The translations under genes were made by a program, and so were the position numbers. A model generated the notes under the pieces. The model made no database searches, was not told where the DNA came from, and worked only from the letters and a program-made list of their open reading frames with translations. Positions 1,938 to 24,389 of a DNA stretch of 47,858 nt are shown here, piece by piece (position 1 is the stretch's first letter; every line of letters begins with the position of its first letter). This stretch comes from an uncultured Rhizobiaceae group bacterium (GTDB lineage Bacteria > Pseudomonadota > Alphaproteobacteria > Rhizobiales > Rhizobiaceae), in the NCBI GenBank assembly GCA_938030595.1, contig CALHIB010000003.1:1-47858 (forward strand), read 5' to 3'.

Positions 1938-2390
1938 ATGGAAAACCTAACGAGCGCATCTGAAAATAGCGCAGATAATTATGATACAGTATTGGAATTG
2001 GCGTCTGAAGTCGTTGCTGCTTATGTTGGCAATAATTCTGTGTCTACAACTGAATTACCTGCTTTGATTGGCGAAGTTTATGATGCTTTGAATAAAGCAA
2101 GCAAAAACAAGTCTGTTGGCGGTGTAAGCAACACTAGACCTGCTGTACCAATCAAAAAATCAATGACAGATGACTATTTGATTTGTCTTGAAGATGGCAA
2201 AAAATTTAAATCATTAAAACGTCACTTGCGTAGTCATTACGATATTTCTCCAGAGGAGTATCGTGAAAAGTGGGGACTTCCATTAGATTATCCAATGGTT
2301 GCACCAAACTACGCGAAAGCTCGATCGCAATTAGCTAAGACTATGGGTCTTGGTAGAAAACCTGGTCAAAAAATTAAAAAGAAAAGCTGA
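1938..2390 (+). CDS. mucR: MucR/Ros family zinc-finger transcriptional regulator
   Basis: 150 aa. Contains the Ros/MucR signature ...DDYLICLEDGKKFKSLKRHLRSHYDISPEEYREKWGLPLDYPMVAPNYA... It has a GGAGAG RBS and a long AT-rich 380-bp upstream region. Confidence 0.95.
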   Translation: MENLTSASENSADNYDTVLELASEVVAAYVGNNSVSTTELPALIGEVYDALNKASKNKSVGGVSNTRPAVPIKKSMTDDYLICLEDGKKFKSLKRHLRSHYDISPEEYREKWGLPLDYPMVAPNYAKARSQLAKTMGLGRKPGQKIKKKS

Positions 2391-2407: not shown

Positions 2408-2749
2408 TTAAGCGCAGGGATTTTCCAAATCCCTGCGTTTTTTTATTAGTTCCCTCTGCAATCTGCGTAACTCAATATGCCGTGTGAAATTGTAGTGAGC
2501 AGAATTTTTAAGTGATTTTTTTTGCTCACTCAAAATGTGTGAGTTAACAATAAGAAGAATACGTCCCAAACTGCTCAGTGTGCTGAGTTGATCTTCTTTA
2601 CATACCAATCCCACCAAGCTCTTAATTCTACTTGCAGTTGCTTTTGATGTAGCAGAAATTTTGTCACTCTGCTTCACGTACATGAGCGCTGATGCTTTAA
2701 CAGCATCCAAGAGTTCTTTAGAGAACTGATTATTTTTCAAATATTTCAC
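2408..2749 (-). CDS. Hypothetical 113-aa protein, divergent from the GafY-like gene
   Basis: ORF only; I recognise no motif. Its last 4 codons (NPCA) run through the mucR terminator hairpin, so it could be a real small gene or a spurious ORF. Confidence 0.35.
   Translation of the reverse strand: MKYLKNNQFSKELLDAVKASALMYVKQSDKISATSKATASRIKSLVGLVCKEDQLSTLSSLGRILLIVNSHILSEQKKSLKNSAHYNFTRHIELRRLQRELIKKRRDLENPCA
2413..2444 (+). terminator. Intrinsic terminator after mucR
   Basis: Perfect 11-bp stem CGCAGGGATTT/AAATCCCTGCG with a 3-nt loop, followed by T7 (2438-2444). Confidence 0.75.
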
Positions 2750-2900: not shown

Positions 2901-2929
2901 TTGATTTACTCTAGTAATAGGAATATATT
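2901..2929 (+). promoter_or_regulatory. Candidate sigma70-type promoter for the GafY-like gene
   Basis: TTGATT (2901-2906), 17-nt spacer, TATATT (2924-2929). GGGGAGAG RBS and the ATG at 2951 lie just downstream. Confidence 0.4.
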
Positions 2930-2950: not shown

Positions 2951-3427
2951 ATGAATGCACCAGCACTATGTTGTGTTTCGGCACATCAAACAAACAATAG
3001 AAAGTCATTTAAACGGCATAGTAAAGTAAAAGGGAGCATGACACCAAATATTCATAGCTATGGTATAACATCATTGAACAAGCCTGGTGATAGATTATTG
3101 GCAACGTTTGTGAACCAAATGGTTGCTTCTGCGTATGAAATACCTTCGCAAAGACTATTAAAAGATGATCGCGGCACTGCCAAAGCAACACGAGCTAGGC
3201 AAATTTCAATATATTTAATGCACACTGGATTATCATTTTCTCTCTCAAAGATTTCCCGTATCTATAGAAAAGATCGCACAACAATAGGATATGCATGCCG
3301 TGTGGTTGAAGATTTGAGAGATACTCCAGCTTTCGATGATCGGTTGATTGAGTTAGAAGAAACAATAAACACAGTCTTGATATTAGCTGCATATATCCCT
3401 GAAAATGGGGGGCAAAATGCAAAATAA
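2951..3427 (+). CDS. Small DnaA-domain-IV-like helix-turn-helix protein with no AAA+ module; candidate GafY-like GTA activator subunit
   Basis: 158 aa. The C-terminal half, RARQISIYLMHTGLSFSLSKISRIYRKDRTTIGYACRVVEDLRD, matches the DnaA C-terminal DNA-binding signature. Strong RBS. Overlaps the next ORF. Confidence 0.75.
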   Translation: MNAPALCCVSAHQTNNRKSFKRHSKVKGSMTPNIHSYGITSLNKPGDRLLATFVNQMVASAYEIPSQRLLKDDRGTAKATRARQISIYLMHTGLSFSLSKISRIYRKDRTTIGYACRVVEDLRDTPAFDDRLIELEETINTVLILAAYIPENGGQNAK

Positions 3428-4238
3428 AGCCAAGCAGGAAGAGCTGCGACATTCACTTAGATTGCTAAAATTACTCTCTAAACGTTTCAAGACAGGCCTT
3501 GAATATCGGATGGAAGAAGACGTTGCTATAATTGTTTTAAATGAAAATCAATATCGCTTTAGTTATGACCTTATAAGGAAACTATGTGACAAAAAATACT
3601 TGGTTACATTCCCTAATGTAATAAAAATTACTGATTCAGGTACGGCTTATTTAAAGAAACAGTTAAATCCGGATTCGCTTCTTGCAAGTGCAGATAATCA
3701 CATTGCGGAAACGACTATCATTCATGATCGTCAATATCATCAAGTTCAGATGAACATGAATGAATCGCCTTTGCTGAGGTTATTTTCACGAAAAACAAAA
3801 AACGGTACAAGTTATATCACCATGGAAGAGTTTCAAGCCGGCGAGCGTTTGCGTCAGGACTTTGAGCGCGGACAATTACAACCAAAGATTACTGCAAGTT
3901 TGCAAGGCTCGATGGGTTCTGCAGGCAGGGCGGGTAGAAGTAGTGTCGAGGAGATTACAGATTTTGCACTGGACGCAAGAAAGCGTGTTGGTAAGGCAAT
4001 AGAGAACCTTGGCCCTGAATTATCAGGAGTTACTCTGGATATATGTTGTTTCTTGAAAGGTTTGGAGAGTGTAGAGCGTGAAAGAGCATGGCCACCTCGC
4101 TCAGCAAAACTGATGCTCAAAACTGCTCTTGCATTGCTGGCCAGACATTATGGAATTTCCGGATATGAAAACCAGCGTACGAATAAACACACTTCATGGG
4201 GAGGAGCTGATTATCGACCAACCATAAACCGTACCTAA
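3405..4238 (+). CDS. Conserved alphaproteobacterial protein (DUF6456-like C-terminal region); candidate GafZ-like partner
   Basis: 277 aa. The more likely start is the ATG at 3417, which follows a GGGGGG RBS. Motifs: FQAGERLRQDFERGQLQPKITASL and WPPRSAKLMLKTALALLARHYG. Translationally coupled to 2951..3427. Confidence 0.7.
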   Translation: MGGKMQNKAKQEELRHSLRLLKLLSKRFKTGLEYRMEEDVAIIVLNENQYRFSYDLIRKLCDKKYLVTFPNVIKITDSGTAYLKKQLNPDSLLASADNHIAETTIIHDRQYHQVQMNMNESPLLRLFSRKTKNGTSYITMEEFQAGERLRQDFERGQLQPKITASLQGSMGSAGRAGRSSVEEITDFALDARKRVGKAIENLGPELSGVTLDICCFLKGLESVERERAWPPRSAKLMLKTALALLARHYGISGYENQRTNKHTSWGGADYRPTINRT

Positions 4239-4648
4239 TTCAATGCGTCTGTGGCATGGGTCTTGATACGTTCAACCAGCGATCGTAAACCATTCGATCG
4301 CTGGGGAGTGATATGTTCTGATAAATCAATCGAGTCAAAAATTTGTCTTTCATCAGTAGCAAGAATGTCTGAAGCTTTTTTATCAGAAAAAATTGCAATG
4401 GTGATTGCCACAAGGCCACTTACGATATGAGCATCGGAAGCGCCTTTGAAGCTTAATACAGGGTCTGTGCCGGATGATTTTTCAGAAGTAACCCAAACCT
4501 GGCTAACGCATCCTTGAACTTTATTAGCTGCAGTTTGCTCTTCTTCAGGAAAATCGGGAAGCGCACCTCCCAATTCAATCAGGTATTTGTAGCGATCATC
4601 CCAATCATCCAAAAACTGAAAGTTTTCAATTATCTCTTCAATATCCAT
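4235..4648 (-). CDS. sufE: SufE-family cysteine desulfuration (sulfur acceptor) protein
   Basis: 137 aa. Has DDWDDRYKYLIELG, VQGCVSQVW (active Cys) and the typical C-terminal LTPQRSNGLRSL-type region. Confidence 0.9.
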   Translation of the reverse strand: MDIEEIIENFQFLDDWDDRYKYLIELGGALPDFPEEEQTAANKVQGCVSQVWVTSEKSSGTDPVLSFKGASDAHIVSGLVAITIAIFSDKKASDILATDERQIFDSIDLSEHITPQRSNGLRSLVERIKTHATDALN

Positions 4649-4713: not shown

Positions 4714-5034
4714 TTATTTTTGAATAGAGCTTGTTTTTATCTGATCAACTTCGGTGGATGAATTGCCAGCATCTTGTTGGTCAGTAAACTTACTCAGTGT
4801 ACCACGAACAGTCATCATAGCACTTTGTGCCAACGCTTTCCCTGTAATACAAGTTTCGACATTACGTTCACAAAATGAAGAAATATCTGAATAGATAGAA
4901 TGAGCTGCACTAAAAGTGTCGTAGGTTGTTATTTCAGCAGTTGGTACTGTCTTTTGGTTTGCGCTCTTCTCTCTAATGGTCTCTGCAGGCAAAAGAACTG
5001 CTGCAAGGCCAAGCGCTATGATTAATCTAAACAT
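4714..5034 (-). CDS. Small secreted protein (DUF5330-like)
   Basis: 106 aa. N-terminal signal/anchor MFRLIIALGLAAVLLPA and conserved Cys pair FCERNVETC. Confidence 0.55.
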   Translation of the reverse strand: MFRLIIALGLAAVLLPAETIREKSANQKTVPTAEITTYDTFSAAHSIYSDISSFCERNVETCITGKALAQSAMMTVRGTLSKFTDQQDAGNSSTEVDQIKTSSIQK

Positions 5035-5278
5035 TTATATTCACCTGTCTCCCGTTCTCTGCATGTATAACAGGGAAGGTTTAAGTCCCATTTTAGGAAT
5101 GTTAGGGAATTTGATTCAAATTTTATAAATTGCGTTTACTATGGTTTTGGAAAGGTTCTGTTTACCATGACTTGAGAAAGCCTTGCTTTATAGCGGGTTT
5201 TTGGTGATTTCTTATCCATAAAACGCTGGCATTAGGATTCCATTAAATACGTTGTGTAACCAATCTTGCTAACCATAA

Positions 5279-6607
5279 TTGGCGAGTAATGTTTTGAGTA
5301 ACGCTTTTAAAAGATCATTGAATAAACTGACAAGTGTTGTCGGGATCCAGCATCATAGCACCTGTGTGCTAGATGAAGGTAATAATTTTTTATCAGCTGA
5401 GGTATGTGCAGTTTTAAATAGCATGCCCGATAACACATCACTTCATACAGCAAATGGAGATGCTGTCTGGGTATCGAAAAATGCAAAGAAAACATTTACG
5501 GCGACTTCACCAAACTTGCTTGGAAAAGCATTTTTTGATGCAGCAAATCCGCAGGATAAGCTAAAGATTTTTAAAGCCTTTTCTGATTGCGCAAATTTGG
5601 GAGAAACTCAATCAATAGTCTTTCGCGCGCAGCAACAAGTCAACACAGGCAATGTTGAAGCTTATACATATGAATTGAGGATTTCTGCTTATCAGTATGA
5701 TAATCAAGAACTGTATTTGGCCTTGATACGCGATATCACTACTGAACAATGTGAGCTTGATAGAGCTCATAAAGAAATCAAGCAAGCCAACGCATCTAAC
5801 AGTACCAAAAGCTTGTTTTTATCAAATATGAGCCACGAATTGCGCACGCCATTAAATGCAATCATTGGTTTTTCACAAATGTTGATGGGTGAGGCAGCTC
5901 TTGTTATTTCTGAAGACAAGAAAACAGAATATGCTGAACATATTAATCAGTCAGCAAATCATCTTTTAAATATTATCAATGATGTTCTTGATTTATCTAA
6001 AATTGAAGCTGGCAAATTTCAGATTATTCCAGAAGTCCTCAATGTCTCGCAAGAGCTTGAGTCAACTCTAAAATTGATGGACCCCCTTGCAAGCAAAGCA
6101 AAGCTTTCAATTAAGACTGAAATTGCCGACGAACTGCCAAATATTACTGCTGATCCACGTGCCTTACGTCAGATAATTATGAATTTGGTTGCCAACGCGA
6201 TTAAATTTTCAACAGAACACAGTCAAGTTAAAGTCACATTGAAACGAGACAGACGAAAAATAAGACTTGAGGTTGCTGACAATGGTTTGGGTATGAAACC
6301 GGAAGCTGTTGAGCAACTTGGCAAGTCATTTTTTCAAGTAGAGCAAACTGCATCAAGACGTTTTGAAGGAACAGGACTTGGGCTTTCAATCGTGTTTGGT
6401 CTTATTAAGCTCCATGATGGCACTATCAGTTTCAGGAGCAAACTGGAACAAGGGACAACTGTATCTGTTGAACTGCCAATATCTAACCAAAAATCTATTC
6501 CTGTCCCATCAGATCCGGATGAGGCAATTGTTTTCCTGAATGAGGCGAGGGAGCCTAATTTACTAAGAAAACTCGATAAAATTCCAACTGTTCGTAAAGC
6601 GGGGTAA
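5279..6607 (+). CDS. PAS-containing sensor histidine kinase (PleC/DivJ-type H-box)
   Basis: H-box FLSNMSHELRTPLNAIIGFSQML, N-box IIMNLVANAIKFS, G-boxes DNGLGM and GTGLGLSIV. The called start is a TTG, so the true start is uncertain. Confidence 0.85.
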   Translation: MASNVLSNAFKRSLNKLTSVVGIQHHSTCVLDEGNNFLSAEVCAVLNSMPDNTSLHTANGDAVWVSKNAKKTFTATSPNLLGKAFFDAANPQDKLKIFKAFSDCANLGETQSIVFRAQQQVNTGNVEAYTYELRISAYQYDNQELYLALIRDITTEQCELDRAHKEIKQANASNSTKSLFLSNMSHELRTPLNAIIGFSQMLMGEAALVISEDKKTEYAEHINQSANHLLNIINDVLDLSKIEAGKFQIIPEVLNVSQELESTLKLMDPLASKAKLSIKTEIADELPNITADPRALRQIIMNLVANAIKFSTEHSQVKVTLKRDRRKIRLEVADNGLGMKPEAVEQLGKSFFQVEQTASRRFEGTGLGLSIVFGLIKLHDGTISFRSKLEQGTTVSVELPISNQKSIPVPSDPDEAIVFLNEAREPNLLRKLDKIPTVRKAG

Positions 6608-6611
6608 GTCT

Positions 6612-7400
6612 ATGCAACTTATAAAACAAACATCATCATTATTATTACGAGCAGTGATAGAAAAGCCAGGAAGTGCAGCTGGGCTCGTAGTTTTTGGTTT
6701 GGGTTTTGCCTTGGTAGCGGGCAATGCACTTTATTCCCAAGAAGGTCAACATCAAGATCCATTATGGTCAACTGCTAAGGAAACTGAGAGACTTTCAGAA
6801 AACTATGAGCCAGAAATCGCAAAAGTTAGTCGCAAGAATACTATAACCAGAAGTGTTCTTACACAGCGCATTAGTTTGAAAAATGTGCCAGTACCAACTA
6901 TTAGCCCTGTAAGAAGCAAATCTGTTGCCGCGCATTCTTCCCTGGTGAGAGATGTCCAGTCTGTTCTAGCAGATATTGGTTTCTACACAGGCAAGGTCGA
7001 CGGCATTTACGGCAGCGGAACTAAAGCCGCAATTATGAAATTCCAAGAGCGTTCTGGTATCATTCCGAACGGTGAAGCAAGTTATGGTTTGTTGAGCAAC
7101 TTGAAATCAGTTCAGGCTGTAACAGGCACGCAACAAACTGCAAGCGTTCAACCCAAACAAACGGGTGCAAGTGCCTTGCCGCAAGTATTGGTCTTTGATG
7201 CGGAAACGGTTGCTCGTATTCAAACCGGACTAAAAGAAAACTTTGGTGATGAAAACATCAGTATTGATGGTGTTATGGGTAGCCAAACGAAGAATGCCAT
7301 TAAGCGCTTTCAACAACGTTTCAAGTTGCCTGTATCAGGCGATCTGGATAATAAGACACTTGAAAAGATGTTATCTGTAGGCATATTAGCGAGCATCTAA
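6612..7400 (+). CDS. Membrane-anchored protein with two peptidoglycan-binding (PG_binding_1) repeats
   Basis: N-terminal TM segment AAGLVVFGLGFALVAGNALY. Two repeats of the type GKVDGIYGSGTKAAIMKFQERSGIIPNG and IDGVMGSQTKNAIKRFQQRFKLPVSG. Confidence 0.8.
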   Translation: MQLIKQTSSLLLRAVIEKPGSAAGLVVFGLGFALVAGNALYSQEGQHQDPLWSTAKETERLSENYEPEIAKVSRKNTITRSVLTQRISLKNVPVPTISPVRSKSVAAHSSLVRDVQSVLADIGFYTGKVDGIYGSGTKAAIMKFQERSGIIPNGEASYGLLSNLKSVQAVTGTQQTASVQPKQTGASALPQVLVFDAETVARIQTGLKENFGDENISIDGVMGSQTKNAIKRFQQRFKLPVSGDLDNKTLEKMLSVGILASI

Positions 7401-7435
7401 CTTTACCAGCTTGGTGTAAGCATAAAGGACAGAAA

Positions 7436-7777
7436 ATGCGTTTAACCAGTGCCATGTGGTTCGCAGTCTTCATGCGATCTGAAAGTGCACGAGGCGCTTA
7501 TGTATCGGTTATCAAATCAGGAGCCCAGCAAGCAGGAGCCTTATTTGTGATAGAAAATCATCTCAACGGATTATTCAACCTTTACGCGCCTGCTCCCCAA
7601 GCATTCTTTGATGAAGACAGCGACGGTGACCGCAAGTTTGAATGCGTTCTAAAAAATGCCAGTGAAGCTGAAATTGATGCTTATATGGATAAGCAAAAGC
7701 ACTTTGACCCAGACCTTTGGATCATTGAAACTGAATCAGGAAGTGGCGACCTTTCATTGGTAATCACTGAGACTTAA
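7436..7777 (+). CDS. DUF1491 family protein
   Basis: 113 aa. The pattern MRLTSAMWFAVFMR...GAYVSVIKSGAQQAGALFV...LYAPAPQ...FDPDLWIIE matches my recollection of this alphaproteobacterial family. Confidence 0.65.
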   Translation: MRLTSAMWFAVFMRSESARGAYVSVIKSGAQQAGALFVIENHLNGLFNLYAPAPQAFFDEDSDGDRKFECVLKNASEAEIDAYMDKQKHFDPDLWIIETESGSGDLSLVITET

Positions 7778-7787
7778 CCTAAACATA

Positions 7788-8942
7788 TTATGCGATTAAT
7801 TTTTCTTCCTGATAGGAGGCGTTGTTATCCTGTTTTTGCCTAAGCAGAATTGCGCGTCTGTCTCTTGCTGCCAGAGAAAGAGCGTAGCGTGTTGTGGATT
7901 TATCTTCACCATCGTGGAAAAACTCTCTTGAGAAATCAGCGCCAAGTTTTGTAAAGTATACAAGGCAATGTTCACGATTGAGGTTTTTATACTTTTCCAT
8001 CACAACTTTGAAAATCTTTGCATTTCTTCCGATGTTGCGGTTTAGCATTAATAATATTCTGGCCGCACTAATTTCTCTAATTTCCATGGCACAAAGGAGG
8101 CTGGCCAACATGCCTGCATCCTGGTTCGCAAGAAGCTTAATAGTTGTTTGATGTTTCAAGCCGCAAAAGTGTTCAACCGATTTTGCAAAACTGGATAGGT
8201 CACTAAAACGGGCACTTGCTAATAATTGGTGTTCTATTTGTTTTTGCGTGATTTTCGTAAACGTCGATTTTGCAGGTTTGCCTGCAGGCTTTCGTCCTAG
8301 TTTTCCACCTACATTTGCTAATTGTAATAATGAGGCAGATAGGTCTTTTGATTTTGGTGATACCGAAGGTTTTTCAAGTTTTACATGTGAATGTGTAATT
8401 GTTTCTGCTGGCTGTTCCACCCATTTATTTGAGCTTGTTGGTGCATTGATCAGTTCAAGAATTTTCGGGTTTTCCACCAAAGCACGATTTGAATTTAGAG
8501 CATGATAAATTTGCCTGTTTTCATCATCTAACTTCAACAAGGCTTTAATAGTTGATGCATCAAGGTCAACCCGTCTTGCAATGACTTTACCATGCTCAAT
8601 CGAACATTTTTCAACAATCAGGTTAAGGTCAGCTGGTTGTAAAACGGGTGAATATAACAACGGAAGATTCGCAATTGCTATCTCTTCCAAGGCAAAAAAG
8701 ATGATTATTGGCTTCGGCGCATATTCGCAAGCGCTCAAATTTTTTGCAATAACTTTACGCTCACGATTATCTGTATTCAAAATTAGTGTGTAAAACTGCT
8801 CTTTGAATGAAGATACATCATGCTTTGTTGGTCGAATAAGAGTGCTAAATCTACTCGATAAATCAACCAAGGCAGAGCAATTTCTCTTTGCCTTTACATG
8901 TCTGTTATTTGTTCTTTTTTCTATAGATAATATATCTTGCAA
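7788..8942 (-). CDS. DUF2336-like conserved alphaproteobacterial protein
   Basis: 384 aa and helical-repeat-like, e.g. RKVIAKNLSACEYAPKPIIIFFALEEIAIANLPLLYSPVLQPADLNLIV. The family assignment is from memory only. Confidence 0.55.
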   Translation of the reverse strand: MQDILSIEKRTNNRHVKAKRNCSALVDLSSRFSTLIRPTKHDVSSFKEQFYTLILNTDNRERKVIAKNLSACEYAPKPIIIFFALEEIAIANLPLLYSPVLQPADLNLIVEKCSIEHGKVIARRVDLDASTIKALLKLDDENRQIYHALNSNRALVENPKILELINAPTSSNKWVEQPAETITHSHVKLEKPSVSPKSKDLSASLLQLANVGGKLGRKPAGKPAKSTFTKITQKQIEHQLLASARFSDLSSFAKSVEHFCGLKHQTTIKLLANQDAGMLASLLCAMEIREISAARILLMLNRNIGRNAKIFKVVMEKYKNLNREHCLVYFTKLGADFSREFFHDGEDKSTTRYALSLAARDRRAILLRQKQDNNASYQEEKLIA

Positions 8943-9118
8943 GGCCCCATCTTCCTATCAAGTGATTCTATATAAACTATTCTTCCATTAAAAATGTTTA
9001 CAACCTGTTAACCATGTTTGGTTTTTATAAAAGGAACGATTCATTTTTTATTTTCTTTGAAAATGGATTTTAGAATACACCCATAAGAACCTTTGGTTCT
9101 TTTAATTGGAGAAACTGA

Positions 9119-9289
9119 ATGAGTAATATTCTAAAGTTTCCACTGCAACGCGTACAAAGACGATCATATGAAATGCCGGAAATTTCACATGAAGCAGATA
9201 TTTTAGTGTTTGAAGGTGTGCGTTATGAAAAAGCTAGCCTTGAAGAAAAGGTTCTTCGCCGCAAGAAAAGATCAAAAATCAAATCTTAA
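9119..9289 (+). CDS. Unlisted small ORF (56 aa), hypothetical
   Basis: GGAGA RBS 6 nt upstream of the ATG. Sequence MSNILKFPLQRVQRRSYEMPEISHEADILVFEGVRYEKASLEEKVLRRKKRSKIKS. Below the 60-aa cutoff of the track. Confidence 0.4.
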   Translation: MSNILKFPLQRVQRRSYEMPEISHEADILVFEGVRYEKASLEEKVLRRKKRSKIKS

Positions 9290-9864
9290 GCATCAGGCAC
9301 AATCGCAATATTTGTGTTGTACGGCATGCACTTAGCGCTTTTTAAAAAATCATCAGAGTGTGTCTGCCAGCTGGGATCAGGCACCAGGGCACGCAGGAGT
9401 ACAAAACCCTTCATATTCTGACTTTCAACCAGAATAGATGATTCAATTTCTTCTGGTTGTGTTTGCCGGATATCAGCCATTTGAATAGGGTTTACAATCA
9501 CCACTCTAAGTTCATTTTTAATAGCTGTACGGTCATTCATGCTGTAAATGATTTTACCGGTTTCATCAAAAACTGACGCAGACCAAAAAGTCTTTGCTTC
9601 ATTTCCAATAATCTGGATTGCTGTTTTCGTCAGATCAAACTTGCAAACGGAAAGTTTTAAATACGGATCACTGGTGGAAATGCCAAATGCATTGCCATCA
9701 CCAATATGATAAAATTGGTGCGTGTCCAATTTTGCAGCAATCTGCTTTGCAGCATCTTTTGACCCTAGTGACGGTATCAACAAAATGATAACGATATGAA
9801 TAATACCAGCAAGGATTAAGCTGCATACTCCAAGATATATTAGTCGAGTTTTCATTCCTGACAC
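9286..9864 (-). CDS. Membrane-anchored conserved protein (partner of a DUF1214/DUF1254-type pair)
   Basis: 192 aa with N-terminal TM LIYLGVCSLILAGIIHIVIILLIP. Overlaps the upstream gene by 13 nt, which suggests an operon. Confidence 0.6.
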   Translation of the reverse strand: MSGMKTRLIYLGVCSLILAGIIHIVIILLIPSLGSKDAAKQIAAKLDTHQFYHIGDGNAFGISTSDPYLKLSVCKFDLTKTAIQIIGNEAKTFWSASVFDETGKIIYSMNDRTAIKNELRVVIVNPIQMADIRQTQPEEIESSILVESQNMKGFVLLRALVPDPSWQTHSDDFLKSAKCMPYNTNIAIVPDA

Positions 9865-10433
9865 CCAATTAACTTGATGCGTGGCATCTGCGGATCAATT
9901 ACACCTGAATTGCTAGTAATCGGTGTATCATACAACCGCAAAATCAGTTTGAAATCTCCGCTGCCTTTTGTGATCATCCAATTGCCTGATCTCGGTGTGC
10001 TGCTAATTTTTATAACAAAAGATGAATCCGGGTATCGAACTAAATTACCTGAATAAAGAGCTGATTTTTGGGCTGCATCATTCACAACTAAATTTCCAGC
10101 ATCATCATATGCAGATAAAGTCCAAAGCCTGGCAGAAGAAGTTTGACCAGCTACTTCGTAATTACATTCTTTTGATAGACGCTTTCCATCTTGATCATTG
10201 ATTGCTTCAAAAGCCAAGCCTTCTGCTGCACCCAACGGAATGGTACCATCGCTCGTTGCCTTGGCGCTTGTATAGGGATCGACCTGGGCACCACCAACAA
10301 ATGGCCATGCTGACCAAGGGCCGGTATTAACTGCGCCAATTCCATGCGTACGTTGCAAAGCAAAGTTTGCACTTATGCCACCCAGGAGCAGCCCAATAAA
10401 TAATACGATTGCAGCATTGATAATGATACGCAT
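9852..10433 (-). CDS. DUF1214-like membrane-anchored protein
   Basis: 193 aa with N-terminal TM IIINAAIVLFIGLLLGGI and motifs GPWSAWPFVGG...DPYTSA. Family call is from memory. Confidence 0.6.
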   Translation of the reverse strand: MRIIINAAIVLFIGLLLGGISANFALQRTHGIGAVNTGPWSAWPFVGGAQVDPYTSAKATSDGTIPLGAAEGLAFEAINDQDGKRLSKECNYEVAGQTSSARLWTLSAYDDAGNLVVNDAAQKSALYSGNLVRYPDSSFVIKISSTPRSGNWMITKGSGDFKLILRLYDTPITSNSGVIDPQMPRIKLIGCQE

Positions 10434-10473
10434 AGAATTATTGCTTAATACTTTGGTTGGACGATATTATTAT

Positions 10474-12663
10474 TCATTGTGTTGAAGTATCCGAATTTTC
10501 AAAGTTTGCAATCTCACCATTAAGTTTAAGCTTTTTTGCACCTTGAAATATTTTTTCCAACGCTCTCAAACGCTCTTCTGATTGCTTGGATAAAAGCTTT
10601 GGTCTTAGAGGCTGCGTTTCGGTTTCTTCCGGGCGGGGTACCACGTTATTAACAGGTTCATCTGATCTGCCAGGTAGTGGGTTTTCTATGTATGGTATGG
10701 GGCGTAGTTCAAGATTTTTATGGGCATAGGTCATAAACTTCTGCCAGGTCATTGCCGGCAGGCGCCCGCCAGTTAAGCGTCTGGTGGGTTGATAGTTGTC
10801 ATTACCAAACCAAACCGCCGAAACATAATTGCCCGTATATCCTACAAACCATGCATCACGGTAAGCTTGAGTTGTACCGGTTTTACCAGCCGCACGAATA
10901 CCATTTAAGGCAGCACGTTTTGCCGTGCCCCATTCTGGTATCTGTGCCATCATTTTATTCATGGCTGCGACTGTGTCTTCCTTTAGTACCTGCGGGGCTG
11001 CCTTTGCGTCTTCGCGAATGTCAAAGAGTATATTGCCAGATGTATCCAGTATTTGAGACACACCAAATCGATTTAATTTTTTCCCGCCGGTCATAAATGT
11101 TCCATAACCAGATGCCATTTCAAGAACGGTAACACCATTTGACCCGAGAACCATCGGTGGATTAACGACCATCTCGGATTCGATGCCCATATCCCGAGCA
11201 GTTTTTACCAAGCGGTCACCACCCAGTGGTTTCAGGCCATCACGACCAAGGTACATTTTCACGGGAACAGTATTAATGGATTTCACCAGTGCTGTAGTCA
11301 TATCCATACGGCCACGGAAATTTGGTGTGTAGTTGCGTGGGCACCAGTTTCTGCCAAACCTTACAACACAAACCCGTCCATCCGTAACTCTTGTTTTTTC
11401 ATTATAACCAAAGTTGTTGATGGATGAAGCATAGACAAATGGTTTGAATGAAGAACCTGGTTGGCGTTTTGAAAGCGTCGCCCGATTAAACTGACTTTGT
11501 CCGTAATCGCGGCCACCCACCATGGCACGTACAGCGCCCTCGTGGTCAATAACAACCATCGCAGCATCTCTCACACCGTATTGTGTGCCAAATTGACGAA
11601 GATGCGTTTCAACAGATTCTTCTGCTGCTTTTTGCAGGTCGAGATCAACTGTAGATTTAACAACCAGATTTCTTGTTTTGAATTTAACGGCAGTTTTGCG
11701 AACTTCATCATATGCCCAATCAAGGAAATAGTTAGGTCCCTGTAGGTCTTCTCTAGGCACAACGCTGGCGGGTTCACGTCTGGCTCTGATAACTTGTCCT
11801 TCGGTCATAAACCCGGCCTGCACCATGTTGGTAAGGACTTCGTTTGCACGTGCGCGAGCTGCAGGTAGATTGATGTGCGGGGCGTATTTCCCCGGAGCTT
11901 TATATAATCCAGCAAGCATGGCGGCTTCTGCCAGAGTTACATCTTTGATGTTTTTATCAAAATAATACTGAGCTGCCGCCGCAATACCAAAGTTGCCGCC
12001 ACCCATGTAAGCGCGGTCAATGTAAAGTTTGAGAATTTCTTTCTTAGACAAGTTTGTCTCAAGCCATAATGACAGAAATGCTTCCTTGATTTTTCTATCC
12101 AGAGTTCGCTCATTGGTCAGAAATAGGTTTTTGGCAAGCTGCTGCGTTATGGTACTACCGCCTTGAACCACAGAATTTGCACGAACATTTTCAGCCATTG
12201 CGCGAACCAAGCCTAAAAAGTCGATGCCAATATGTTCGAAGAAGCGTCGATCTTCTGTTGAAAGCACTGCCTTGATAAAATGATCAGGCAGAGCGTCCAG
12301 TTCTTCTGCTGCGTTTTGGCGAATGCCGCGGCGGCCGATTTCCTTGCCATTTCTATCTAAAAACAGAACAGAATAATCATCCTGACTGCGCCAGTCTTTT
12401 TGGGTTTCCTCGAAAGCGGGAAGGGCAAGAGCCAGCATAGCTATAGAGCCTAGAACCCCAAGCGTAATACTTTCATCAAAAATCTCGACCAGGAACCGTT
12501 TGAAACCTTTTACACGAAATTTTCTGAAGAAAATGGTTATACTTTCCCAGCGTTCACCCGCGTCGGAGAACATGCGGTAGAGCGATGAATCAATCCAGGA
12601 ATCGATATCAAGTAGCTTGTTCCAACCGCCACTTTTTTTCTGATTTTTAAATGGATCACGCAA
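10474..12663 (-). CDS. Class A penicillin-binding protein (PBP1A family; transglycosylase/transpeptidase)
   Basis: GT51 motifs EDRRFFEHIGID, GGSTITQQLAKN and RKIKE. Transpeptidase motifs SSFKP and KTGTT. Confidence 0.95.
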   Translation of the reverse strand: MRDPFKNQKKSGGWNKLLDIDSWIDSSLYRMFSDAGERWESITIFFRKFRVKGFKRFLVEIFDESITLGVLGSIAMLALALPAFEETQKDWRSQDDYSVLFLDRNGKEIGRRGIRQNAAEELDALPDHFIKAVLSTEDRRFFEHIGIDFLGLVRAMAENVRANSVVQGGSTITQQLAKNLFLTNERTLDRKIKEAFLSLWLETNLSKKEILKLYIDRAYMGGGNFGIAAAAQYYFDKNIKDVTLAEAAMLAGLYKAPGKYAPHINLPAARARANEVLTNMVQAGFMTEGQVIRARREPASVVPREDLQGPNYFLDWAYDEVRKTAVKFKTRNLVVKSTVDLDLQKAAEESVETHLRQFGTQYGVRDAAMVVIDHEGAVRAMVGGRDYGQSQFNRATLSKRQPGSSFKPFVYASSINNFGYNEKTRVTDGRVCVVRFGRNWCPRNYTPNFRGRMDMTTALVKSINTVPVKMYLGRDGLKPLGGDRLVKTARDMGIESEMVVNPPMVLGSNGVTVLEMASGYGTFMTGGKKLNRFGVSQILDTSGNILFDIREDAKAAPQVLKEDTVAAMNKMMAQIPEWGTAKRAALNGIRAAGKTGTTQAYRDAWFVGYTGNYVSAVWFGNDNYQPTRRLTGGRLPAMTWQKFMTYAHKNLELRPIPYIENPLPGRSDEPVNNVVPRPEETETQPLRPKLLSKQSEERLRALEKIFQGAKKLKLNGEIANFENSDTSTQ

Positions 12664-12799
12664 ACGGATTGTTCCTTATTTCTCAATTCAGGTATTTCTA
12701 TAACATAATTGATAGCGTTTGAATGGAAAAATCATCATATGACTTTATAGTTTCTCAAATTCTGGTAAACGCCAGTTACAACAAATCTGGAAGTAAATT

Positions 12800-13258
12800 A
12801 TGGCAGATCGCCCATTTTGGAAAACAAAAACGCTAGAACAAATGTCTAAGACTGAGTGGGAGTCGCTTTGCGATGGTTGTGGCAAGTGTTGTCTTAACAA
12901 GCTGGAGGACTGGGATACTGCTGAAATTTACTGGACTAATATCGGTTGTGAACTTCTTGATTGCGATAGTTGTCGCTGTAAGGATTATGGTAATCGCTTT
13001 GAGCTGGTTTCTGATTGCATCCAACTGACACCCGAAACTGTTCGTAGTTTGACCTGGCTGCCTCCTACCTGCGCATACCGTTTGGTACGAGATGGCGAAG
13101 ACCTTTTTGATTGGCACCCGCTCATATCAGGTGATCCAGAAACGGTTCATAAAGCGGGTATAAGTGTGAAAGGCAGAGCCATTCCTGACGATGGAAAACC
13201 TGCAGAAGAATACGAAGATAACTTGGTAGATTGGCCCAGAGAGATTTATATTCCTTAA
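12800..13258 (+). CDS. ycgN: YcgN/UPF0260 family Cys-cluster protein
   Basis: 152 aa. Has [18 protein letters not shown]...[12 protein letters not shown], characteristic of YcgN. Confidence 0.85.
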
Positions 13259-13378
13259 ACGGATTTCACAGGCTTAAGATTTTTAATGTCGTTTGCAGCA
13301 AGTGTTCCTGGCAATCCACTAGAGCCATACACGCCAATTGGGTTATGATTTTCATCAAGTGCCAACGATTCGTTTTCG

Positions 13379-13999
13379 ATGTTAGGAAGATGCTGCGTGT
13401 CTATTGAGCTTTCGCCTTTACCTGCAATTGGTTTTGCCACTGAACCACTCCCAACCCGTGATGGGTTTCGTTTTACACTTACGACGTTACTCTCAACATT
13501 GTTAAATGATGCAGAGCAAATGTTTGGCCCACGTGACATGTCTTATACGCCAGTGGGAATTGAGTTTTACGGAAATAGACCACAAGTCTGGTATCCCGGT
13601 ACCAATAAACATATATCAATAATCTTAACAGATAGTGCGCGTGAAGACCCAGCGCAGGCCATTTTTCAATTAGCGCATGAAGTGATGCACCTACTATCGC
13701 CAACAGGCGGAGCAAATGCCCCTGTAATCGAAGAAGGGTTAAGCGCCTTATTCCAACAACGTGCCAACGAAGTTTATGATCTAGATCTACATCTTGTAGC
13801 AGTGCCTTATGTCAAGGCAACAGAGCTGGCAAATATGCTCTTGAAAGGTGAGCCTAGTATTATAAAGCGTTTGAGAAAAATTGAGCCTGCCTTTCATAAA
13901 TGGACACCACGATTTTTAGTTTCAGAGGCAAGGATATCTCGCGCTTTGGCAGAAGAACTATGTGAGCCATTTATAGATTTTGAAACTCGAGAAAAATAA
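13379..13999 (+). CDS. Orphan HEXXH zinc-metallopeptidase-like protein
   Basis: QLAHEVMHLLSP, with EEGLS 13-14 residues downstream of the motif's second His as a possible third ligand. The start is ambiguous: the first 47 codons overlap an antisense ORF, and alternative starts are TTG 13499 and ATG 13520. Confidence 0.55.
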   Translation: MLGRCCVSIELSPLPAIGFATEPLPTRDGFRFTLTTLLSTLLNDAEQMFGPRDMSYTPVGIEFYGNRPQVWYPGTNKHISIILTDSAREDPAQAIFQLAHEVMHLLSPTGGANAPVIEEGLSALFQQRANEVYDLDLHLVAVPYVKATELANMLLKGEPSIIKRLRKIEPAFHKWTPRFLVSEARISRALAEELCEPFIDFETREK

Positions 14000-14023
14000 T
14001 TTCAAAATAATAGGAATTTATTC

Positions 14024-14052
14024 TTGACACCGAAACGGTGTTGGGGTACATT
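14024..14052 (+). promoter_or_regulatory. Candidate sigma70-type promoter of the GTA cluster
   Basis: TTGACA (14024-14029), 17-nt spacer, TACATT (14047-14052). The spacer contains the inverted repeat CACCGaaaCGGTG. Confidence 0.5.
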
Positions 14053-14123
14053 ATTTATACGATCGGAGAAGTGCGGATAGCACTCTTTGAGCCTTAAATC
14101 ATACATTTGTATTTTGCTTAATT

Positions 14124-14157
14124 AGCTGCCTTTTCTATAGGTGGCTTTTTTGCGTTT
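14124..14157 (+). terminator. Candidate intrinsic terminator in the GTA leader, upstream of g1
   Basis: 7-bp stem AGCUGCC/GGUGGCU (two G-U pairs) with a 9-nt loop, followed by TTTTTTGCGTTT. Lies about 40 nt upstream of the g1 start. Confidence 0.45.
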
Positions 14158-14192: not shown

Positions 14193-14492
14193 TTGTCAGA
14201 TGAACCAAGTCAACTGGAAGAAATCGCAATTAAATTTCGTAACAAATTACTTGATAAGGTTTCTAAATTTGAAGACGTGGAAGCGGATGAAGCAATCTCT
14301 TCTGAGCAGCAATTAAAATCGTATATGGGATTTTTCAAGTTACTTCAAAGTTTGGAAGAAATGATAAAACGGGTGCAACAAGAACGTGAAAAAAAGTCTG
14401 ACAGGGGAGTGGATATATTGGAATTCCGCCGAGAGCTTGAAGAACAAATTGCCAAACTTGTCGACGCAAAAACTCAGGCAATTATTCCTTGA
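14193..14492 (+). CDS. g1-position small acidic coiled-coil protein (possible GTA small terminase-like protein)
   Basis: 99 aa with a TTG start preceded by GGGGAA. The assignment rests on its position directly upstream of TerL; no motif was recognised. Confidence 0.5.
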   Translation: MSDEPSQLEEIAIKFRNKLLDKVSKFEDVEADEAISSEQQLKSYMGFFKLLQSLEEMIKRVQQEREKKSDRGVDILEFRRELEEQIAKLVDAKTQAIIP

Positions 14493-15750
14493 GGAGTTAG
14501 ACGAAAAAGCAATCGAGGTCATTAAGGCTGACTGGCCGTTATGGGCGAGATTAAAACAAAGGCCTCCACTATGCGACTGGCGGACATGGCTAGTTTTGGG
14601 AGGACGTGGCGCAGGCAAAACAAGAACCGGAGCTGAGTGGCTTAAGGGGGTTGCAATGGCAGACCCGCATTATCCAGGCTCAAGTGGCGGCAGGATAGCG
14701 CTGGTAGGAACAAGCTATGATGACATGCGTGATGTCATGGTTGAAGGAGAATCCGGATTACTCGCAATCCATAAAAAATCAGAACGCCCGCAATGGATTG
14801 CCTCTCGAAAAGAGCTAATTTGGTCTAATGGTACGATTGGAAAATTGTTCTCTTCAATCAACCCTGAAGGGCTGAGGGGGAGTCAATTTGGAGCTGTATG
14901 GTGCGATGAAATCTGCAAGTGGCAAAATCTGCAACAAACTTGGGACATGCTACAATTTTGTTTAAGGTTGGGAAAAAATCCAAGGCAGGTTGTGACAACC
15001 ACACCCAAGCCCTTAAAGCTTTTGAAGGCGCTGATCAAAGATCCAACAACCATAACAGTGCGTTCCACAACATCAGAGAATGCGAGCAATTTGGCTGACG
15101 GGTTTTTAGAGTATGTTGAAGGAATATACTCAGGCACCCGCTTAGGCAGGCAAGAGCTTGAAGGTGAAATTATTGAAAACAATGAATATGCATTGTGGCG
15201 TAGGGAACAAATTGAAGCATCCAGATTAGACAAGCCAGCACAAATAAATCGCATCGTCATCGCAGTTGATCCGCCAGCTGGCTCAAATTCCAAGTCAGCA
15301 TCTTGTGGTATTATTGCCGCTGGCATTTTGCCTGATGGGAAGTGTTGTGTCCTGGAAGACAGAACAATATCCAAGGCCACGCCAGATCGGTGGGCAGCGG
15401 AAGTTGTTGCACTTTATCAATTGTTGGAAGCTGATTTGATTGTTGCTGAGGTAAACCAGGGTGGTGACATGGTAAAAACGGTCATTCATACGATCGATCC
15501 AACAGTACCAGTGCGTTCAGTACATGCAAGTCGTGGCAAGTGGATAAGAGCTGAACCAGTAGCGCTTTTGTATGAGCGGGGACGAGTTTTCCATGCAGAA
15601 AAATTTGCAGAACTTGAAGACCAAATGTGCGCCTTTACACCAGATGGAATAGCAGATGGTGTCTCGCCTGATCGGGTAGATGCGCTTGTTTGGGCAATTA
15701 CAGAACTGGCGCTCACTAAACGCAGCGAACCTCGCGTACGCAGTGCATAA
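14386..15750 (+). CDS. GTA/phage terminase large subunit (g2)
   Basis: DWPLWARLKQRPP...WLVLGGRGAGKTRTGAEW (Walker A), plus a C-terminal nuclease region. The called GTG start overlaps g1 by 107 nt. The real start may be TTG 14437, 14449 or 14458. Confidence 0.93.
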   Translation: MKKSLTGEWIYWNSAESLKNKLPNLSTQKLRQLFLEELDEKAIEVIKADWPLWARLKQRPPLCDWRTWLVLGGRGAGKTRTGAEWLKGVAMADPHYPGSSGGRIALVGTSYDDMRDVMVEGESGLLAIHKKSERPQWIASRKELIWSNGTIGKLFSSINPEGLRGSQFGAVWCDEICKWQNLQQTWDMLQFCLRLGKNPRQVVTTTPKPLKLLKALIKDPTTITVRSTTSENASNLADGFLEYVEGIYSGTRLGRQELEGEIIENNEYALWRREQIEASRLDKPAQINRIVIAVDPPAGSNSKSASCGIIAAGILPDGKCCVLEDRTISKATPDRWAAEVVALYQLLEADLIVAEVNQGGDMVKTVIHTIDPTVPVRSVHASRGKWIRAEPVALLYERGRVFHAEKFAELEDQMCAFTPDGIADGVSPDRVDALVWAITELALTKRSEPRVRSA

Positions 15751-15774
15751 ATTCAACAAATAACGGGATTAATA

Positions 15775-16947
15775 ATGAACCGATTTTTTAACTGGTTGAA
15801 ATCATCAACCAATACACATGCACGTCTGGAAGAAAAACAATCTACCGGTTCGTTAATTGCTTTTCATTCCGCAGGCAATGCAATTTGGTCTGCAATGGAT
15901 GGCGGTGATCTGGCAGGACAAGCCTTTGCACGCAATCCGGTAGTGTATCGTTGTATTAGAATGATCAGTGAAGCAGCTGGTTCATTACCCTTTATGGTAC
16001 GCGAGGAAAGGGTGGAAGTGCATGAGCATCCGCTTCTTGAAGTTTTATCAAAGCCAAATGCGCGTCAATCTGGACCTAAATTTCTTGAGGCCATGTATGG
16101 TCATTTGTTGATTGCAGGAAATGTCTATTTGACAAAAATAGAAGTTGCCGAACAACTTCGTGAAATTCATATTCTGGATCCTGCTAAAGTACGCCCGGTT
16201 TTGGATGAAAAAGGTTGGCCAAAGTTCTATGAATATGTTTCGGGGTCAGTTGTAACCCGTTATGATCTAAGCGAGATTTTACATCTGGCTTTATTTAATC
16301 CATCAGATGATATTAACGGTCTCTCACCTTTGTCTTCAGCGCATATGGCTTTGGATATTCATAACGCTGCAAGCAATTGGAACAAAGCTTTATTGGACAA
16401 CTCGGCTCGCCCTTCAGGAGCGTTGGTTTATGCATCATCCGCAGGTGAGAATTTGACTGACGATCAATTTAATCGCCTAAAAAATGAACTGGAAGAAGGC
16501 TACACTGGCTCAACCAGAGCAGGACGTCCTATGCTGCTGGAAGGTGGGCTTGATTGGAAGGCCATGGGATATAGTCCGCGTGATATGGACTTCATGCAGG
16601 CAAAAAATGGTGCAGCACGTGAAATTGCTTTGGCTTTTGGGGTGCCTCCAATGTTGTTGGGAATTCCAGGTGATAATACTTATTCAAACTATCAAGAAGC
16701 CAATCGTGCATTTTGGCGACAAACTGTTTTACCGCTAGCGAATAAAACGTCTTGCGATATGGGAAATTGGCTTGCCAGTGATTTTACTGGAAACCTCACA
16801 CTCATTCCGAATGTTGAAATGGTTGATGCTTTGGCATCAGATCGGGAAGGGTTATGGGCACGTTTGGGGCAGGCAGATTTCCTCACCGCAAATGAAAAGC
16901 GGGAAGCTTTGGGTTATCTCCCGATGGATGACGAAGGCATCGTTTAG
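15775..16947 (+). CDS. HK97-family phage portal protein (g3)
   Basis: 390 aa. Has AFARNPVVYRCIRMISEAAGSLPF, the central ...SPRDMDFMQAKNGAAREIALAFGVPPMLLG... and a typical portal C-terminus. Confidence 0.95.
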   Translation: MNRFFNWLKSSTNTHARLEEKQSTGSLIAFHSAGNAIWSAMDGGDLAGQAFARNPVVYRCIRMISEAAGSLPFMVREERVEVHEHPLLEVLSKPNARQSGPKFLEAMYGHLLIAGNVYLTKIEVAEQLREIHILDPAKVRPVLDEKGWPKFYEYVSGSVVTRYDLSEILHLALFNPSDDINGLSPLSSAHMALDIHNAASNWNKALLDNSARPSGALVYASSAGENLTDDQFNRLKNELEEGYTGSTRAGRPMLLEGGLDWKAMGYSPRDMDFMQAKNGAAREIALAFGVPPMLLGIPGDNTYSNYQEANRAFWRQTVLPLANKTSCDMGNWLASDFTGNLTLIPNVEMVDALASDREGLWARLGQADFLTANEKREALGYLPMDDEGIV

Positions 16948-16948
16948 A

Positions 16949-17284
16949 ATGTCTGTTTCTTTTACAAACCCTAGTGAGATTCCGGAACAAGTTTGGATAT
17001 TTATTGCGAAAGTCATTGGTGCAATTTGTGGGTCTGCAATATCTATAGCGTATTTATTACCCGCCAACAGGCGTGAAGCGTTCACACGATTTTTTGTTGG
17101 CATTACGATCGGAATGATTTTTGGAACATCAGCCGGCATTAAGCTTGCTGACTATTTGAGTATATCTGATCGCATGTCTGAAATCGAAATAGCTCTGTCA
17201 GGGGCTGCGGTCGCAAGCCTTTGTGCCTGGTGGGGGCTGGGTGCTCTCAATCGCCTCACATCGCGGCTGGGCGTTACAAAATAA
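16949..17284 (+). CDS. Small three-TM membrane protein at the g3.5 position
   Basis: The ATG at 16949 lies 1 nt after the portal stop. The track's 16772 start overlaps the portal gene and is unlikely. Hydrophobic segments: VWIFIAKVIGAICGSAISIAYLL, FFVGITIGMIFGTSAGIKLA, IALSGAAVASLCAWWGLGAL. Confidence 0.6.
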   Translation: MSVSFTNPSEIPEQVWIFIAKVIGAICGSAISIAYLLPANRREAFTRFFVGITIGMIFGTSAGIKLADYLSISDRMSEIEIALSGAAVASLCAWWGLGALNRLTSRLGVTK

Positions 17285-17296
17285 ATTTTTGATAAC

Positions 17297-17989
17297 ATGG
17301 AGAATAGCATGAAACAACGAGGGCTAATGGCTCAGCGTGAGACTAAATTTGCGCCTGTTACTGTCCAGGACATAAAACTTGATGGCAGCTTTTCAGGCTA
17401 TGCAAGTGTCTTTGGTGCTGTGGACCAAGGTAATGACATGGTGGCAAAGGGGGCGTTTGCAAATTCTTTGAAAAACCGAAAGCCCACAGACATACGCATG
17501 TTATTCCAGCATGACCCTGATCAGCCAATTGGATGCTGGAAAAAAATCATTGAAGATAAAAAAGGTCTGTACGTTGAAGGTAAGATTACACGCGGTGTGA
17601 GGCGCAGTGAAGAAGTCTTGGAGCTTATGCGAGAAGGTGCTTTGGATGGGCTATCCATTGGTTTCAAAACAAAGCGCGCGCGGGTAAATCCCGCAACAAA
17701 AATACGTACAATTTTGGCAGCAGACCTTTGGGAAATTTCCATTGTTACATTTCCGCTTCTTGAAGAAGCGCGGATTGAAACGGTGAAGAGTTTCAGAAAA
17801 AACAAACTTCCAACTCAACGAGAATTTGAACGATGGCTAACGCGGGATGCGGGGCTGTCGAGGCGTGAAGCAAAGATGATTATTTCAAATGGCTTCAACG
17901 CACTCCACGCTAAGCAGGATGCGAGCGTGGAACCAACCCTTGCAGACAAGATCCGCAAGGCAACACAAACCCTATCTTGCTTAAGATAA
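17297..17989 (+). CDS. HK97-family prohead protease (g4)
   Basis: FSGYASVFGAVDQGNDMVAKGAF...MLFQHD...PIG...GLSIGF, typical of S78 prohead proteases. An alternative ATG at 17309 follows a GGAGA RBS. Confidence 0.93.
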   Translation: MENSMKQRGLMAQRETKFAPVTVQDIKLDGSFSGYASVFGAVDQGNDMVAKGAFANSLKNRKPTDIRMLFQHDPDQPIGCWKKIIEDKKGLYVEGKITRGVRRSEEVLELMREGALDGLSIGFKTKRARVNPATKIRTILAADLWEISIVTFPLLEEARIETVKSFRKNKLPTQREFERWLTRDAGLSRREAKMIISNGFNALHAKQDASVEPTLADKIRKATQTLSCLR

Positions 17990-18004
17990 ACAAGGACATA
18001 AAAT

Positions 18005-24386: not shown

Positions 24387-24389
24387 CCT

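Follow-up and report, generated by a model that had tools for sequence, protein, structure and literature searches.

A GafY/GafZ-type gene pair and conserved promoter elements at a gene transfer agent locus of an uncultured Rhizobiaceae lineage

The split gafYZ pair and the adjacent GTA cluster

Activators of gene transfer agent (GTA) expression have been described in two arrangements. In Rhodobacter capsulatus, GafA (Rcc01865) is a single 382-aa polypeptide, while Caulobacter crescentus encodes GafY (CCNA_01111, formerly HdaB) and GafZ (CCNA_01112) in adjacent genes; there, GafY acts with IHF (integration host factor) and RpoD, and GafZ, which is loaded at a palindromic site in the -35/-10 interval, serves as an anti-terminator (Tran & Le 2024, PMC11150451). 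Split forms are commoner than fused ones, with 494 of 759 GafZ homologues having an adjacent GafY (Gozzi et al. 2022, PMC9632790). In the Hyphomicrobiales, the gene called gafA encodes a 22- to 32-kDa DUF6456 protein and usually follows a gene for a small DnaA-like protein, the pair lying between mucR (upstream) and sufE (downstream) (Sherlock & Fogg 2022, PMC9638019). Here we describe such a pair from an uncultured Rhizobiaceae group bacterium (assembly GCA_938030595.1, contig CALHIB010000003.1, positions 1 to 47,858). This whole 47.9-kb stretch, which has a moderately low GC content of 42.4%, is referred to as the window. The genes in question are as follows.

2951 to 3427, plus strand: gafY-like gene (open reading frame ORF1), 158 aa, with a DnaA domain-IV-type helix-turn-helix (HTH)
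3417 to 4238, plus strand: gafZ-like gene (ORF2), 273 aa, with an N-terminal alpha/beta domain and a C-terminal DUF6456 domain
14193 to 28190, plus strand: complete RcGTA-type (R. capsulatus GTA-type) structural cluster by Pfam, from a g1-like gene to the g15 GTA_TIM protein; presumed target of the pair

Relatives of ORF2 were collected in a scan of one genome per species, which yielded at least 594 stretches; synteny was read from the best 80 of these, all of which come from Hyphomicrobiales-type genomes. Since no Caulobacter or R. capsulatus locus was among these best 80, which likewise held no Bartonella locus, the reference sequences of GafY, GafZ, and GafA were obtained by machine reading of Supplementary Fig. 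8 in Tran & Le 2024, with a few residues missing. In BLASTP comparisons, ORF1 was 40% identical to C. crescentus GafY over 96 aa (E 4e-21), and ORF2 was 32% identical to GafZ over 137 aa (E 1e-16) and 33% identical to R. capsulatus GafA over 200 aa (E 6e-25), the last alignment reaching the central region of GafA. The published proteins fall into the same Pfam families as the two ORFs, GafY into Bac_DnaA_C and both GafZ (9.4e-44) and GafA (3.9e-56) into DUF6456. A joint alignment of ORF2, 13 homologues, GafZ, and GafA contained 22 invariant columns, which include both motifs quoted for ORF2 in a preliminary description of this locus made from the sequence alone. Taken together, the BLASTP alignments, Pfam matches, and invariant columns therefore identify the pair, by sequence homology, as GafY and GafZ homologues, the split form of the GTA activator GafA. 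The preliminary description had proposed this same assignment, and the background on which it drew, namely, a split GafY/GafZ with GafZ as an anti-terminator (PMC11150451) and a DnaA-like GafA N-terminus (PMC9638019), is accurate.

Both ORFs were found where they had been placed, and the peptides RARQISIYLMHTGLSFSLSKISRIYRKDRTTIGYACRVVEDLRD, ERLRQDFERGQLQPKITASL, and WPPRSAKLMLKTALALLARHYG quoted from them are present in the translations. The sole Pfam match of ORF1 is Bac_DnaA_C (E 4.7e-11, residues 54 to 118), and a PDB sequence search matched it to DnaA domain IV of solved structures (E 1.8e-5), in agreement with its earlier reading as a DnaA domain-IV-type HTH protein without an AAA+ module. 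Neither the AAA+ ATPase domain III nor the N-terminal domains I and II were found in its 158 aa by Pfam and NCBIfam profile searches; a true DnaA or Hda paralogue was considered and ruled out for want of the AAA+ domain. Against the DnaA equivalog TIGR00362, ORF1 scored 40.5 bits, with model positions 350 to 422 alone covered, which is far under the cutoff of 343.9; it is therefore not a replication initiator. The NCBIfam search otherwise returned just sub-threshold matches to PRK06030, a "hypothetical protein" model, and to DnaA. Upstream of ORF1 is the Shine-Dalgarno-like (SD-like) sequence GGGGAGAG, and the start methionine is common to the homologues in an 18-sequence alignment. The database homologues of ORF1 (n = 44) are 140 to 168 aa long, mostly 152 to 161 aa, and the first ~45 residues of ORF1 are weakly conserved among them. 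C. crescentus GafY is likewise a domain-IV-only protein encoded by the first gene of its pair; it differs in lacking this N-terminal extension (122 aa versus 158 aa).

As in C. crescentus GafZ, the C-terminus of ORF2 is DUF6456, which is covered in full (E 8.5e-43, profile positions 2 to 135 of 136). ORF2 shares with GafA this C-terminus and the motifs AGERLRxDFE and CCFLxGLE...RSxK..L..AL..L..HY. Part of the GafA central region also aligns with the ORF2 N-terminal domain, just from GafA residue ~176 onward, while the omega-binding central loops of GafA are largely missing in the split form. The central region has been described as the least conserved, and GafZ and RpoZ did not co-immunoprecipitate in Caulobacter (Tran & Le, PMC11150451). 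An ORF2 start at ATG 3417 agrees with the homologues, with a 273-aa database protein (P0001), and with the closest genome among the matches listed, an uncultured Rhizobiaceae metagenome-assembled genome (MAG; L001) with 68% GafZ identity; ATG 3405 is an upstream alternative that would give 277 aa. With gafZ starting at 3417 and gafY ending at 3427, the two genes overlap by 11 nt on the same strand, as they do in L001. The overlap noted in the preliminary description thus stands, and it suggests that gafY and gafZ are translationally coupled.

An AlphaFold2 model of ORF2 had a mean predicted local distance difference test score (pLDDT) of 71 and was confident just for residues 1 to 85, which form an alpha/beta domain. 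A Foldseek search with this model against the PDB gave no match under E 0.1, and the "winged-helix-like" N-terminus attributed to ORF2 at first was not borne out by the model or by this search. Nor did the AlphaFold2 model or the Foldseek search confirm a sigma-4-like C-terminus, which was also considered for ORF2. When ORF2 was used as a query against PDB sequences, no relative and no solved GafZ or GafA structure was retrieved, and no named NCBIfam family was matched by ORF2.

The GTA cluster begins 9.8 kb downstream of the pair, matching the ~10 kb first estimated. Its Pfam matches comprise terminase, portal, S78 protease, capsid, connector, head completion, tail completion, tail tube, GTA-gp10, DUF2460, hub, NlpC/P60, and GTA_TIM. 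The intervening genes (4714 to 13258) are of a housekeeping type and encode DUF5330, histidine kinase, peptidoglycan-binding, DUF1491, DUF2336-like, DUF1214, PBP1a, and ykgJ products. L001 carries the same genes in the same order, and its synteny with the window is identical over 20 kb, including a GTA cluster start ~10 kb downstream; this shared gene order argues that the spacing between regulator and cluster was inherited and does not reflect a recent juxtaposition. The proximity is conserved, ~29 loci having a GTA-type promoter 6 to 10.6 kb downstream of gafZ. Both the short distance to the cluster, just ~10 kb, and the neighbors mucR and sufE set the present pair apart from that of Caulobacter.

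The GTA promoter is separated from the ykgJ-like CxxCxxCC gene by a 206-aa ORF with an HExxH motif (AHEVMH; 13379 to 13999, plus strand), which is overlapped by an ORF on the minus strand (13255 to 13539). This 206-aa ORF has no family match and is absent from L001 and from a second related locus (L003), in both of which ykgJ is followed immediately by the GTA promoter. It appears to be a lineage-specific insertion immediately 5' of the GTA promoter.

Conserved elements at the gafYZ and GTA promoters

The following DNA elements were located upstream of gafY and in and upstream of the GTA cluster.

2901 to 2929, plus strand: putative sigma-70 promoter of gafYZ, TTGATT-17-TATATT, from a consensus scan only
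2920 to 2931, no strand assigned: RogA-type operator GGAATATATTCA, one mismatch from GGAA-N4-TTCC; it overlaps the -10 of the putative gafYZ promoter
14013 to 14024, no strand assigned: another RogA-type box, GGAATTTATTCT, immediately next to the -35 of the GTA promoter
14024 to 14052, plus strand: putative GTA cluster promoter, TTGACA-17-TACATT, the best promoter match of the region (10/12)
14027 to 14041, no strand assigned: perfect inverted repeat ACACCG-AAA-CGGTGT in the -35/-10 spacer, unique in the window; candidate GafZ-binding element
14056 to 14073, plus strand: element TATACGATCGGAGAAGTG at or just after the predicted transcription start, conserved in the 20-locus alignment described below
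14124 to 14152, plus strand: terminator-like leader hairpin followed by a T6 run, 41 nt 5' of the first GTA gene (dG -10.2 kcal/mol, z -2.2)
19313 to 19337, plus strand: strong hairpin resembling an intrinsic terminator, located within the cluster immediately 3' of the capsid gene (dG -20.4 kcal/mol, z -5.4)

The SD and the gafY ATG lie within 22 nt of the putative gafYZ promoter, and this region is conserved in L001. In Caulobacter, the core promoter of gafYZ that RogA binds contains an inverted repeat GGAA-N4-TTCC (Gozzi et al. 2022, PMC9632790), and a box with one mismatch to it occurs at the corresponding position here. GGAA-N4-TTCC is the core of a 14-mer, ATAGGAATWTATTC, of which the window contains exactly two copies, one at gafY (2917 to 2930) and one at the GTA promoter (14010 to 14023). 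Among 76 loci, the 350 nt searched upstream of gafY contain a box with no more than one mismatch in 66 (background, 0.14 per 350 nt) and an exact box in 25 (background, 0.0036); the positions of these boxes cluster tightly. A RogA-type box beside TTGACA is kept in 20 loci of several genera. The two systems differ in that the box here also abuts the GTA -35, where RogA was not seen in Caulobacter.

A further element lies ~21 to 24 nt upstream of the gafY RogA-type box, at 2888 to 2896 in the window, and reads TTGTTCACA in most loci, TTTTCCCCA in the window, and TTATCCACG in one locus (L008). It is similar to a -35 hexamer (TTCACA) and, with 7 to 8 of 9 positions matching TTATCCACA, also to a DnaA box, and from its sequence it could be a candidate site for the DnaA-like GafY. 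Separately, CtrA was considered as the reader of the motif shared by the two promoters and was rejected, the only TTAA-N7-TTAA of the window lying inside a GTA gene and at neither promoter.

The GTA promoter was aligned across 20 loci from Mesorhizobium, Aminobacter, Nitratireductor, Ahrensia, and several MAGs, with GC contents of 40 to 64%. The consensus, ATAGGAATTTATTC-TTGACA-CCGTrACGGTG-nTTTGG-TAGnGT-n5-TATCGTCGGAAAAGTG, combines a consensus -35, in which TTGAC is invariant, with a weak -10 (TAGnGT or TACATT). The spacer repeat is kept as CCGwrACGGTG throughout the 20 loci; in Caulobacter, the GafZ-binding element (ZBE) is likewise a palindrome between -35 and -10 (PMC11150451). The element at 14056 to 14073 (consensus TATCGTCGGAAAAGTG) begins with the -10-like hexamer TATCGT and, judging from its sequence, might be a pause or loading signal comparable to sigma-dependent pause elements.

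A terminator-like structure early in the GTA transcript may be a further parallel to Caulobacter, which has three 150-bp repeats after gtaT, whereas a simple leader hairpin precedes the first gene here. Leader hairpins are located in the same position in L001 and L003, with different stem sequences. A hairpin of dG -10 or lower within ~135 nt of the start was found in 15 of 27 loci versus 39 of 153 control segments, a recurrence across loci that is suggestive and not universal. The post-capsid hairpin has an 11-bp stem with 7 GC pairs and was observed in this window only. A scan of the window with Rfam at gathering thresholds, together with a tRNA scan, detected nothing; the GTA leader thus contains no known RNA element.

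A proposed GafYZ circuit and its alternatives

When the Caulobacter model is transposed to this locus, it appears probable that the pair is a GafYZ-type regulator of the adjacent GTA cluster, acting under RogA-like repression and with anti-termination by GafZ. In such a circuit, a RogA-like (LexA/cI-type) repressor would occupy the GGAA-N4-TTCC box at the core promoter of gafYZ and hold the operon off. Upon derepression, the small DNA-binding protein GafY, of DnaA domain-IV type, would activate GTA-related promoters, and GafZ would bind the -35/-10 inverted repeat of the GTA promoter (14.02 to 14.05 kb) and join RNA polymerase. The polymerase so modified would pass the leader hairpin (14.12 kb) and the post-capsid hairpin (19.3 kb), and the entire 14-kb cluster would be transcribed. 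In Caulobacter, a GafY-RpoD interaction, an elongation complex of GafZ with NusA, NusG, and NusE, and terminator read-through have been reported, and GafZ has been likened to the lambda Q and Pseudomonas aeruginosa AlpA anti-terminators (Tran & Le, PMC11150451). The present locus would be analogous to the Q and AlpA systems in function only: the candidate site lies between -35 and -10 and a terminator-like hairpin lies shortly downstream, while the proteins share no sequence or structural similarity, and Foldseek gave no significant PDB match. The preliminary description had named the pair the cognate regulator of the cluster at 14 to 28 kb. This proposal gains from the shared and conserved promoter elements; the control of the cluster itself is what we infer.

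Several observations weigh against this interpretation. At the level of DNA, the 14-mer was absent from all of 100 shuffles, a statistic that is post hoc, the pattern having been derived from these two sites. With one mismatch allowed, GGAA-N4-TTCC is not enriched in the window alone (27 seen versus 21 expected), so the argument depends on conservation among genomes and on the longer 14-mer that the two sites share. The second box may bind another protein, given that RogA was not seen at the GTA promoter of Caulobacter (PMC9632790), and no RogA-like gene (HTH plus S24) was found among the ORFs of the window. The spacer repeat, CACCG-N3-CGGTG, has no sequence likeness to the Caulobacter ZBE, GCGCCCG-CTGGCGC, and agrees with it in position and symmetry alone. 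The leader hairpin is weak by its dG and z values, ~40% of related loci have none comparable, and the control rate is 25%. At the level of the proteins, the match of ORF1 to the GafA N-terminus is marginal (E 0.46), though the HTH is aligned in register, and the GafA HTH matches Pfam HTH_23 and not Bac_DnaA_C. GafA itself has been interpreted as an omega-dependent activator and not as an anti-terminator (PMC9638019), and the Foldseek search with the ORF2 model yielded no structural support for any mechanism.

The identity of the protein that reads the shared box, GGAA-N4-TTCY, is the point at which an alternative survives best. The box could be a GafY-binding site, with GafY acting on its own promoter and on the GTA promoter, a possibility that we regard as real but doubtful. 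Its presence at exactly these two promoters in the window would fit such an assignment, as would its inferred position at the GTA promoter, centered near -42, a classical activator position. At gafY, in contrast, the box overlaps the -10 and start region, which is the position of a repressor. Moreover, a palindrome of 12 bp is more readily expected for a dimeric protein of the LexA/cI kind than for a DnaA domain-IV monomer. The published data also point both ways: in Caulobacter chromatin immunoprecipitation (ChIP), GafY was detected at both PgafYZ and the GTA promoter and RogA at PgafYZ only of the two (PMC9632790), yet the motif is identical to the published RogA operator GGAA-N4-TTCC (PMC9632790), and the Caulobacter GafY element (with ACTATG, -123 to -113) is unrelated to the box in sequence and position (PMC11150451).

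We also entertain, tentatively, a joint reading in which the GafYZ circuit of this Hyphomicrobiales branch is wired differently from that of Caulobacter. The same RogA-type operator at the gafYZ and GTA promoters may impose double repression in a feed-forward arrangement. The consensus -35, spacer palindrome, -10-like start element, and leader terminator may together form the layout of a lambda-Q-like late switch. Finally, 62 of 70 loci encode an unnamed divergent protein of ~100 aa between mucR and gafY, and the module could include this protein as an undescribed third component.

A mechanism without anti-termination would make the pair an activator as proposed for GafA, acting on RNA polymerase through omega or in the manner of an alternative sigma factor, with the hairpins being attenuators or irrelevant. 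ORF2 does align better with GafA (E 6e-25 over 200 aa, into the central region) than with GafZ (E 1e-16), Rpo-omega is bound by the central region of GafA and -10/-35 DNA by its C-terminal part (Sherlock & Fogg, PMC9638019), and the weak -10 of the conserved GTA promoter fits a requirement for an activator. However, activation and anti-termination are not mutually exclusive, and GafA may itself have an unrecognized anti-termination activity (Tran & Le, PMC11150451). An activator alone also leaves unexplained both the recurrence of leader hairpins with unrelated stems and the strong post-capsid hairpin within the cluster, and we consider this alternative unlikely.

Lastly, it is very unlikely that ORF1 is an HdaB-type replication regulator whose adjacency to a DUF6456 gene is incidental to GTA control: its 40% identity to CCNA_01111 and its retained DnaA domain-IV fold signature do link it to a protein first described as HdaB on the grounds of HdaA interaction and over-initiation upon overexpression, with HdaB proteins of at least three Alphaproteobacteria stated to behave likewise (Frandi & Collier, PMC7049699), but Gozzi et al. 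re-examined HdaB, ascribed these phenotypes to GTA induction, and proposed that it does not regulate replication at oriC (PMC9632790), while the ORF1 gene and gafZ overlap within a single operon, an operator-like box is common to this gene and the GTA promoter, and the pair co-occurs with GTA promoters in ~29 related loci.

The conserved neighborhood of gafYZ and its meaning

The pair is flanked by the following features.

1938 to 2390, plus strand: mucR, a Ros/MucR zinc-finger regulator gene and conserved upstream neighbor (Pfam ROS_MUCR, E 4.5e-49)
2408 to 2749, minus strand: small divergent gene of 113 aa from a conserved unnamed family
2410 to 2440, no strand assigned: strong hairpin and probable terminator between the convergent mucR and 113-aa genes (14-bp stem; dG -20 kcal/mol, z -6.6)
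4235 to 4648, minus strand: sufE, the conserved convergent downstream neighbor (Pfam SufE, E 4.3e-43)

The order mucR-gafY-gafZ-sufE is kept in nearly all of the best 80 of at least 594 stretches, and the Pfam matches of mucR and sufE confirm the placement of the pair between these genes. The preliminary description had further suggested that this placement may tie GTA control to MucR-type silencing, a suggestion that is based on synteny and found no further support here. mucR is codirectional with gafYZ and is separated from the pair by the terminator at 2410 to 2440 and the 113-aa gene. This hairpin has a perfect 14-bp stem with T-runs on both sides and overlaps the last codons of the 113-aa ORF; it is probably a bidirectional terminator.

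The overlap with the mucR terminator raised the question of whether the 113-aa ORF is spurious, which was ruled out by conservation of the family: iterative hmmsearch located it between mucR and gafY, divergent from gafY, in the 62 of 70 loci mentioned above. The divergent gene reported at first is therefore real, and its product is 39% identical to that of an ORF in the same place in L001 (E 1e-22). The family has the C-terminal consensus RERLKGxRRHWSYDLNRHIALKQALDRL, and no Pfam or NCBIfam model was matched by it.

One of the loci, L045 (JAHREI010000009.1), was deposited as "Bacillus subtilis strain SK6B4" yet bears an alphaproteobacterial mucR-gafY-gafZ-sufE locus. With 85 to 90% identity to Pseudochrobactrum kiredjianiae (L032), this contig of a public assembly is very likely mislabeled or a contaminant.

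The split pair with mucR/sufE synteny in the Hyphomicrobiales has already been published (PMC9638019) and is not in itself a discovery. The window contributes a further member of a known regulator family, correctly identified, in its published arrangement and from a lineage not sampled before. Modest additions are the promoter grammar and the small divergent gene, both of them conserved, of which no description was found in the consulted sections of Sherlock & Fogg 2022 (PMC9638019). None of the results overturns the current understanding.

A gene pair that would otherwise be annotated as "hypothetical/DUF6456" in an uncultured Rhizobiaceae-like lineage can now be named. The adjacent RcGTA-type cluster is predicted to be regulated and is therefore probably functional. 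The promoter architecture, consisting of a RogA-type box, a consensus -35, and a spacer palindrome, is sharply conserved at GC contents of 40 to 64%, with a terminator-like leader hairpin in about half of the loci examined. To our knowledge, GTA production has hardly been studied in Hyphomicrobiales relatives of Brucella, Mesorhizobium, and Agrobacterium. In this order, the promoter elements offer mutable targets for the Caulobacter model of RogA repression, GafY activation, and GafZ anti-termination.

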